From: a virus
Taxonomy: Duplodnaviria > Heunggongvirae > Uroviricota > Caudoviricetes
Length of the DNA stretch: 26,413 nucleotides
Direction: 5' to 3' (one strand)
Virus record (IMG/VR): IMGVR_UViG_2737471842_000005
In this document: positions 2,185 to 2,913 of the stretch, one piece after another
Layout of the letters: every line of letters starts with the position of its first letter
Position numbering within the stretch: the first letter of the stretch is position 1
Position numbers and translations under genes: made by a program
The notes under the pieces: generated by a model
Told to the model about the DNA's origin: nothing
What the model saw: the letters and a program-made list of their open reading frames with translations, nothing else
Databases searched by the model: none

Positions 2185-2913
2185 ATGTCCAGAACTGAGT
2201 TTCTACGTTCATTAGGTGCAACATGTAAAAATTATAGTTGGAGTTGGTCGTTTATTGATGAAACGAACAAAAGAATTATATTTGGTGCATGGGAAGATCT
2301 CAAATCTATTGATGGTAAAAGCGTCTTGATTTTATCACATAAGTGGAAGGAAAACGAACAAGGACGCAAAAAAAGCGGATATAGTCAATCGATTGAGCAT
2401 ATAAACAAAATTTTGTATGAAGGTTATAACTTATATACGTTTTGCCAAGTAAGAGACGAAAGAAAAACATCAAGCGGTGCAGCTAAAATCAAAGATTTTG
2501 AAAAAAAGATAGTGCGTAAATATCTAACGAAAATCAATGGTGATTGGTACGCTACTGATGAAGAATACTATTCATATACGCCTAATGTGGATAAGGAGTA
2601 TTATGAAGGTGAACAACAAGAAAGGCGAATAACCTACTATGAACGTGATCCTAAAGCAAGACAAGCTTGTATAGAAGCTCATGGTTATACATGTCAGGTG
2701 TGTGGTTTTAATTTTGAAAAAACATATGGAAAGTTAGGCAAAAACTATATTCAAGTTCACCATATAAAACCTTTACATAAGATTGCTAAACGATATAAAG
2801 TTGATCCGGTAAAGGATCTTATCCCATTATGTGCAAATTGTCATGTAATGATACATATTGGTATGGATGTACGTTCAATAGAAGATTTAAGAGAACTAAT
2901 TAAAAAGAGCTAA
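2185..2913 (+). CDS. McrA-like HNH endonuclease with ~150-aa uncharacterised N-terminal domain (alternative GTG start at 2164)
   Basis: C-terminus ...ACIEAHGYTCQVCGFNFEKTYG...YIQVHHIKPL...DLIPLCANCHVMIH shows the HNH beta-beta-alpha metal finger (CxxC...HH...CxxCH); GAGGA RBS 10 nt before the ATG at 2185. Confidence 0.8.
   Translation: MSRTEFLRSLGATCKNYSWSWSFIDETNKRIIFGAWEDLKSIDGKSVLILSHKWKENEQGRKKSGYSQSIEHINKILYEGYNLYTFCQVRDERKTSSGAAKIKDFEKKIVRKYLTKINGDWYATDEEYYSYTPNVDKEYYEGEQQERRITYYERDPKARQACIEAHGYTCQVCGFNFEKTYGKLGKNYIQVHHIKPLHKIAKRYKVDPVKDLIPLCANCHVMIHIGMDVRSIEDLRELIKKS

Follow-up and report, generated by a model that had tools for sequence, protein, structure and literature searches.

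Gene organization and the HNH nuclease domain

The window analysed here is a 26,413-nt stretch of DNA from a Caudoviricetes virus (IMG/VR record IMGVR_UViG_2737471842_000005), and the subject of this study is the complete gene at its positions 2185-2913. The product is a two-part protein, termed X-HNH below, in which an N-terminal domain (here called X) is joined by a linker to a C-terminal HNH nuclease domain. The gene lies in a prophage-like element of E. coli and converges on a cyclic oligonucleotide-based antiphage signalling system (CBASS) that comprises a cGAS/DncV-like nucleotidyltransferase (CD-NTase) and a two-transmembrane (2TM) SLATT effector (Table 1). The encoded protein is identical to RefSeq WP_047654908.1 of E. 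coli GF3-3, annotated as 'HNH endonuclease' with the same start, and the alignment shows that its first residues, MSR, are common to its homologues.

Table 1 Features of the X-HNH gene and of the adjacent CBASS, in window coordinates
Feature	Position	Strand	Details
X-HNH endonuclease gene, complete	2185-2913	+	ATG 2185, TAA 2911-2913; 242 aa
GAGGA, Shine-Dalgarno-like	2170-2174	+	10 nt 5' of the ATG; read from the sequence
Domain X, α/β, proposed DNA or modified-base reader	2185-2559	+	aa 1-125
Inter-domain linker, predicted flexible	2560-2634	+	aa 126-150; contains invariant E141-G142
McrA-type HNH (ββα-Me) nuclease domain with CxxC...CxxC zinc finger	2635-2910	+	aa ~151-242; preceded by a YERDPKAR helix
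Imperfect AT-rich inverted repeat / hairpin	3023-3099	.	arms 3023-3045 / 3077-3099, 23 nt, 83% complementary
CBASS CD-NTase (SMODS), 258 aa	3106-3882	-	Pfam SMODS E 1.1e-30; PADLOC cyclase PDLC00769 E 8.8e-110
CBASS 2TM SLATT effector, 175 aa	3879-4406	-	NCBIfam SLATT_4 E 3.7e-36; PADLOC PDLC00712 E 6.8e-67

Approximately 88 full-length homologues share 41-79% identity with the window protein, and 61 full-length homologues covering this same range form the family alignment used throughout. The Pfam HNH model (PF01844) matched residues 170-224 of the window protein (E 9.4e-9; 35.7 bits against a cut-off of 21.4 bits) and was recovered in all 61 homologues. The motif is laid out as C170-QV-C173, H192-H193, C216-AN-C219-H220 and H224; all of these cysteines and histidines, together with N218, are invariant in the alignment (61/61), confirming the complete HNH pattern that had been noticed in an initial annotation of the DNA. 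C170, C173, C216 and C219 make up the zinc finger, and H192/H193, N218, H220 and H224 are the predicted catalytic and metal-binding set. Because the catalytic and zinc-binding residues are all invariant, the nuclease is almost certainly active.

A search of the Protein Data Bank (PDB) with the whole protein matched HNH domains alone, the top entry being that of EcoKMcrA (6ghc; phmmer E 1.5e-5, residues 145-232 against 192-274). The description of the protein as McrA-like is thus accurate for its C-terminal half but does not extend to the N-terminal half, as X alone has no similarity to the NEco domain of McrA. In public records, these proteins appear only as 'HNH endonuclease' or, where named automatically, as '5-methylcytosine-specific restriction protein A'. 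HNH domains of this clade, which share 50-59% identity across the C-terminal 100 aa, are elsewhere fused to EVE, DUF3427, DUF7669 or unknown N-termini.

A conserved N-terminal domain without a profile model

Scans of the whole protein against Pfam, NCBIfam, PADLOC and PHROGs matched the HNH half alone and returned nothing in the N-terminal half. Likewise, none of the 61 family members had an N-terminal Pfam match even at E ≤ 10, and SAD_SRA (PF02182) was absent among the 25 families listed out of the 26 that were matched at this threshold. In the literature, no paper names the RefSeq accessions of the X-HNH, CD-NTase and SLATT genes, and no description of domain X or of any family member was found. 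The initial annotation had described an uncharacterised, Trp-rich domain of ~150 aa in which no motif could be named. Its composition (SWSWSF, GAWED, HKW) and the lack of a motif agree with our results, but the folded part comprises only residues 1-125 and is followed by a low-confidence linker up to about residue 150.

The AlphaFold2 model of residues 1-133 alone is of high confidence (predicted local distance difference test (pLDDT) 92.9; predicted template modelling score (pTM) 0.86), with secondary-structure elements in the order α-β-β-β-α-β-β-β-β. Across residues 121-150, pLDDT values in successive 10-residue blocks were 85, 55 and 45, and residues 146-151 fell below 50. The full-length model reached a pTM of just 0.60 although each domain was predicted with confidence, and a flexible linker fits this low inter-domain confidence. 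The length of the linker also varies across the homologue alignment.

Members of the family share the signature GATCKNW-WSWSF ... IIFGAW(D/E) ... LILSxxW ... QSxEH ... GY-L-TF. Residues R3, F6, G11, C14, N16, W17, W21, S22, F23, N25, F33, G34, W36, I49, W54, H72, Y81, L83 and F86 are kept whatever effector is attached, and the constancy of the signature suggests that X has a function of its own. Based on the alignment, the invariant W21, F33, W36 and W54 and the frequent D/E37 are candidate pocket residues. Together with the profile matches and fusions described below, model and alignment indicate that X is a real folded, conserved and modular domain.

Domain architectures and distribution

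To a search of 1.84 billion cluster representatives, the X profile contributed 333 matching proteins at E ≤ 1e-3, including 100 at E < 1e-30. The best 150 of the 333 were broken down by what X is joined to, and domain arrangements were read from Pfam scans of the longer proteins. X was combined with HNH in 56 of these representatives, carried other extensions in 36, and had fewer than 45 other residues in 58, some of which are perhaps gene fragments. Besides the HNH form, X was found in EVE-X-HNH proteins (P0126, P0175 and P0185; in P0162, EVE-X, HNH was not detected), in X-SAD_SRA-HNH_2 (P0257), in X-HNH_2 (P0186), in X-MUG113 (P0174; GIY-YIG-like), and in short and long forms of X-NOV_C (P0128, P0156, P0143, P0159 and P0191), one of which also contains DUF3427 (X-DUF3427-NOV_C). 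NOV_C we take to be a PD-(D/E)xK-type nuclease, based on its Pfam clan. Since X and SRA occur together in one protein (P0257), they are distinct modules.

The combination of one sensor with many nuclease folds is a hallmark of modification-dependent enzymes (Lutz 2019, PMC6765204; Bell 2020, PMC7641849), and the PUA-superfamily, EVE and winged-helix readers have been described as modular in this way (PMC6765204, PMC7641849, PMC11037411).

Two metagenomic relatives carry X in other company, a VWA-X fusion (P0180) and a fusion of X to a group-1 glycosyltransferase (P0214). The latter hints at a DNA-hypermodification enzyme that X might target to DNA.

GTDB species genomes held more than 585 relatives, many of which match the HNH half alone. 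Full-length X-HNH loci were found in Proteobacteria, Bacteroidota, Verrucomicrobiota, Planctomycetota, Chloroflexota, Acidobacteriota, Gemmatimonadota and Chlorobiota, and domain X occurs in ~1% of complete E. coli genomes. An X-HNH gene of 42-43% identity is carried by 125 plasmids, mostly conjugative plasmids of Klebsiella and Enterobacter. On the Klebsiella IncFII plasmid NZ_CP071084.1 (locus L096, 2334-4058), it lies near repA and directly downstream of a gene for an NYN-domain (RNase-like) protein, and the two genes are possibly a plasmid defence or competition module.

A proposed stand-alone, modification-dependent nuclease

We propose that X-HNH is a type IV, modification-dependent restriction endonuclease that consists of a single polypeptide and uses a new reader domain, a reading to which, with its full mechanism, we assign a probability of roughly 55%. 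Its more general part, that the protein is a stand-alone defence nuclease with the N-terminal domain as its target-recognition module, is considerably more secure and appears likely. The strongest support comes from the domain architectures: X is fused to several unrelated nucleases and stands in tandem with EVE, SRA and DUF3427, which argues for the reading of a modified base. The initial annotation had offered a modified-base reader of the type IV kind as one option, and it is now the best-supported one, given these fusions, the tandem arrangements and the lack of a methyltransferase in the window; this support is indirect, however, and X has no sequence homology to SRA.

In the proposed mechanism, X would bind DNA carrying a foreign base modification, and the modified base would probably be flipped into an aromatic pocket of invariant Trp and Phe residues. 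The flexible linker of ~25 aa would tether the McrA-type HNH domain to X and allow it to cut at a variable distance, and HNH, probably dimeric like its counterparts in TagI and EcoKMcrA, would nick or cut DNA in the vicinity. Host DNA would be spared without a cognate methyltransferase, the mark being absent or in the wrong sequence context. The gene itself is accessory cargo: it occupies a variable slot in a prophage-like element with a serine recombinase, inserted between rimO and bssR of E. coli. DNA binding by X, modification dependence, base flipping, dimerisation and the nature of the target are the parts of this scheme that we infer.

With respect to the fold, the best structural neighbours of the predicted X model are DNA base readers, and the structures named alongside it are SUVH4, PvuRts1I, LpnPI, SUVH9 and UHRF1 (two entries). 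We propose, from the model, a fold most like that of SRA/PUA-type base-flipping readers. X is not an SRA recognisable by sequence; at most, it may be SRA-like in fold, as are the readers of MspJI and PvuRts1I. The profile and structure searches suggested by the initial annotation also brought up no SAVED-, CARF-, TIR- or STING-like fold among the matches.

Several results weigh against modification dependence or against a reader fold. An hhalign comparison of the X profile with a profile of the canonical SRA alignment gave a probability of 0.2%. Foldseek returned nothing significant for X against the PDB (best E 0.05, TM-score (template modelling score) ≤ 0.36), and its non-significant top entry was the PD-(D/E)xK resolvase Hjc. 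Most E. coli are Dcm+ and Dam+, and because most carry Dcm, a simple dependence on 5-methylcytosine (5mC) would be self-toxic. The plain marks C5mCWGG and G6mATC (6mA, N6-methyladenine) are unlikely targets; more probable ones are a hypermodification of phage DNA or a mark limited to certain contexts. Moreover, an 81%-identical paralogue, present in 53 E. coli genomes in a different island between ybiT and ldtB, has an N6_N4 DNA methyltransferase gene 1.5 kb downstream. Finally, and directly relevant only if that enzyme carries X, an EcoKMcrA-like HNH endonuclease of E. coli NILS69 restricts phages and plasmids and is inhibited, not activated, by the methylation of neighbouring methyltransferases (PMC12409345, 2025).

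The weak structural matches to Hjc, splicing endonucleases and EcoRV raised the idea that X is itself an active PD-(D/E)xK nuclease. This was rejected: D/E37, the sole acidic candidate, is replaced by N, K, A, R or Q in some members, and the next strand has no (D/E)xK. An inactive PD-(D/E)xK-like fold is possible.

The paralogue island spans ~8 kb and occurs in 43-63 E. coli genomes, including enterohaemorrhagic O111 and O103 strains (in O111:H- strain 11128, locus L095, 4518-12306). It encodes a serine recombinase, an HTH protein, the X-HNH paralogue, a resolvase/invertase, the N6_N4 methyltransferase and a convergent 298-aa protein, with the resolvase gene between the methyltransferase and X-HNH genes. 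The 298-aa protein, of unknown family, is plausibly the methyltransferase's own cognate endonuclease, and the two are possibly a type II restriction-modification system.

The paralogue's neighbour and the NILS69 enzyme, as well as the weak fold evidence for an SRA-type pocket in X, fit an alternative that we nevertheless consider unlikely. Here, X would be sequence-specific and either blocked by modification or indifferent to it, so that X-HNH would be a conventional restriction-type or selfish nuclease, rendered harmless by a methyltransferase encoded elsewhere, by a rare target site or by tight regulation. However, the annotation of the ~37-kb GF3-3 element that holds the gene includes no DNA methyltransferase. 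The window gave no tblastn match to an N6_N4 methyltransferase at E < 1, and none of its sizeable open reading frames (ORFs) contains a (D/N/S)PP(Y/F/W/H) motif. In a survey of 42 loci with full-length relatives (150 flanking ORFs), no DNA-methylase family was within the 25 commonest families, a check that leaves rarer single occurrences outside its reach. In the paralogue island, furthermore, the methyltransferase lies behind the resolvase gene and has its own convergent 298-aa partner. The co-occurrence of X with EVE, SRA and DUF3427 readers likewise argues against this alternative.

We judge it similarly improbable that the trigger sensed by X lies outside DNA chemistry (for example a protein made by the phage, a small molecule or a structured nucleic acid), with HNH acting as an abortive-infection nuclease. 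The many representatives with X and few other residues (58 of 150, some maybe fragments), the VWA-X and X-glycosyltransferase fusions and the lack of detectable sequence homology between X and known readers would be in line with such a sensor. The nearest structures of X being base readers, its fusion to four nuclease families, its tandem arrangements with other readers and the absence of a SAVED, CARF, TIR or STING-like fold from the matches all speak for the reading of DNA instead.

Relationship to the adjacent CBASS

The SLATT and CD-NTase genes overlap by 4 nt and form one operon. Judged by their sequences, they make up a complete type I CBASS that lacks Cap2/Cap3 and any other accessory gene, so that the 'NTase operon' of the initial annotation, although correctly placed as convergent with the HNH gene, is in full a defence system with its own effector. 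The pair lies immediately upstream of the small terminase gene, and its relative position is the same in E. coli 55989.

The spacer of 192 nt between the convergent HNH and CD-NTase genes contains the hairpin listed in Table 1, with a nested inner hairpin. It is the dominant stem in both minimum free energy and centroid folds (z = -2.2). A U-tract follows it on the minus strand only (TTTTTATTATTTT, T5AT2AT4), and a scan for consensus terminators did not call it. The terminator that had been described between the two transcription units therefore holds as a hairpin, and one that probably terminates mainly the minus-strand (CBASS) transcript; it might act in both directions.

The other option of the initial annotation was that the N-terminal domain could be a ligand sensor linked to the adjacent nucleotidyltransferase. 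This coupling was rejected because the genes are convergent, the CBASS has its own SLATT effector and the two do not co-distribute. The cyclase-SLATT pair was matched in 161 of 5,426 complete E. coli genomes, only 10 of which also carry the HNH gene; in the remaining ~150, the pair is ~77% identical and the HNH gene is missing. No SMODS or SLATT was recovered in the Pfam census of the 150 flanking ORFs, which comprised 131 families and revealed no recurrent partner. The commonest were AAA_15/AAA_21/SMC_N/AAA_23 ATPases (4 each), phage integrases (3) and OLD-like TOPRIM (2). Seven relatives viewed singly all lay in non-CBASS contexts, including serine-recombinase elements and plain chromosome; the relative in P. 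putida is in an island beside a Gabija-like OLD-ATPase and UvrD pair and a GmrSD_N gene, and that in Yersinia is in a region resembling an integrative and conjugative element (ICE). In its distribution, the HNH gene is thus independent of the adjacent CBASS.

These data also largely refute the idea that X-HNH is a second, Cap5-like CBASS effector activated by the cyclic nucleotide of the CD-NTase, to which we give very little credence. The proximity of the two genes speaks in its favour. Against it, the match to Cap5 spans the HNH core only (65 residues), X alone brings up no Cap5, SAVED or CARF structure, another gene fills the HNH slot next to the pair in strain 55989, and the ybiT-ldtB island that was inspected has the paralogue but no CBASS. 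The locus is a cautionary case, in that a nuclease adjoining a CBASS operon is not necessarily part of it.

The host element

In E. coli GF3-3, the gene is inside the ~37-kb element between rimO and bssR. The element starts with genes for a large serine recombinase and a 958-aa helicase-like protein; further on come those for the terminase subunits (small, then large), portal, prohead protease and capsid, followed by tail and tail-fibre genes. The window matches E. coli chromosomes, and a 3.4-kb segment around the HNH gene is 99.3-99.9% identical in 10 of the 5,426 complete E. coli genomes, and between GF3-3 and window positions 195-5197 there are only 4 substitutions, all of them in the cyclase gene. 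The large terminase, portal and protease/capsid genes of the window are broken into overlapping ORFs in different frames (4992-6962, 7464-8871 and 8934-10590). The terminase, portal and capsid genes are also split in the RefSeq annotation of GF3-3, relative to which the window has a further 1-nt indel near position 5589. With several of its morphogenesis genes broken in GF3-3 as well as in the window, the element looks like a decaying prophage: the phage seems defective, while its defence cargo is intact and nearly invariant.

The X-HNH gene precedes the small terminase gene of the prophage-like element by 1.6 kb, a position that would suit a role in phage housekeeping, as an HK97 gp74-like packaging protein working with terminase, or as a selfish homing nuclease. 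Either role is largely refuted and most improbable: tblastn with X gave 0 matches in 50,697 phage genomes; relatives reside on plasmids, in regions resembling ICEs and in chromosomal islands that lack packaging genes; the content of the slot varies between related elements; CBASS genes intervene before terminase; and gp74-type proteins are only ~120 aa long and lack an extra domain of 125 aa.

The slot preceding the CBASS seems to be a hotspot of variable cargo in which other uncharacterised defence genes may reside. In E. coli 55989 (locus L002, 4908-5582), it is filled in the same orientation by a gene for an unrelated 224-aa protein without a Pfam match, which is adjoined by further unannotated genes. 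On the other side of the X-HNH gene and divergent from it, two small overlapping genes occupy window positions 1251-1897 on the minus strand. One encodes a 122-aa product with a signal-peptide-like N-terminus (MKKLIIASILAASCNANA) and no family match, the other a 99-aa hydrophobic product with a match to PHROG 30003, a group of unknown function (E 8e-28). Both genes are possibly cargo that acts at the membrane or in superinfection exclusion. Window positions 1-194 have no alignment to the corresponding GF3-3 sequence, which aligns from position 195 onward, pointing to a mosaic junction that precedes the small-gene cluster.

Significance and comparison with known systems

Enzymes that combine a reader with HNH are a known kind of type IV nuclease and the HNH half of X-HNH is ordinary; what stands out is that X has no model in any of the four profile libraries. 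Reader domains set which phage DNA modifications a bacterium can attack. Lacking a model in Pfam, NCBIfam, PADLOC and PHROGs, however, proteins with X are reported by annotation and defence-finding pipelines just as 'HNH endonuclease'. Defining X would add a family to the type IV catalogue, would improve counts of defence genes on prophages and plasmids, and might uncover a modification specificity that is new and of use in epigenomic tools.

More tentatively, and on balance doubtfully, X could represent an unrecognised class of reader for a mark outside the range of known type IV readers, rather than a divergent SRA for 5mC or 5-hydroxymethylcytosine. The mark could be a hypermodified pyrimidine, a derivative of 7-deazaguanine or a modification of the backbone. 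A class of this kind would account for the presence of X next to SRA or EVE in enzymes with tandem readers, and for its being tolerated by enterobacteria that are Dcm+/Dam+; if true, it would provide a new defence specificity and a new family of reagent enzymes.

Among characterised systems, SRA-HNH type IV enzymes (TagI, ScoA3IV/Sco5333 and TbiR51I; 6ghs) are similar to X-HNH in their overall layout, with an N-terminal reader, a flexible linker and a C-terminal zinc-finger HNH domain. The sizes are similar (285-311 residues for the TagI chain, 242 aa for X-HNH), the HNH domains are related, and neither has a cognate methyltransferase. In contrast to these enzymes, X has no SAD_SRA match in the 61 members and almost no profile similarity to SRA (hhalign 0.2%). 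The SRA pocket of TagI consists of two Tyr walls and an Asp, and its flexible linker is of the kind proposed here for X-HNH (PMC6212794). X has no demonstrable counterpart of this two-Tyr and Asp signature.

EcoKMcrA (McrA of E. coli K-12; 6ghc) is the best PDB sequence match to X-HNH, through its HNH domain and the preceding helix. McrA is encoded by the e14 element and is, like X-HNH, a prophage-borne single-gene E. coli enzyme, of type IV. The two differ in their N-terminal domains, as NEco is unrelated to X and the sequence alignment ends at residue 145. ScoMcrA (SBD-SRA-HNH; 5zmm and 5zmn) has a tandem-reader layout that is paralleled by the X-SRA-HNH_2 protein P0257, whereas the window protein lacks a sulfur-binding domain and has X as its only reader; its similarity to the NCBIfam model PT-DNA_restrict (22 bits against a cut-off of 180 bits) is confined to residues 151-185 in the HNH half.

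A relationship to the 'END nucleases' was dismissed, since their sensor is an inactive EndoIII domain and differs from X. Cap5, a SAVED-HNH effector of CBASS, differs in that X-HNH has no SAVED sensor, no operon shared with CBASS and no co-distribution with it. EVE-HNH enzymes (the VcaM4I and TspA15I group) and other nuclease fusions of the PUA superfamily are modular combinations of reader and nuclease, as is X-HNH. X differs from EVE in that it has no Pfam match, but the HNH clade of X-HNH is also fused to EVE, and EVE-X-HNH proteins combine both modules in one chain.

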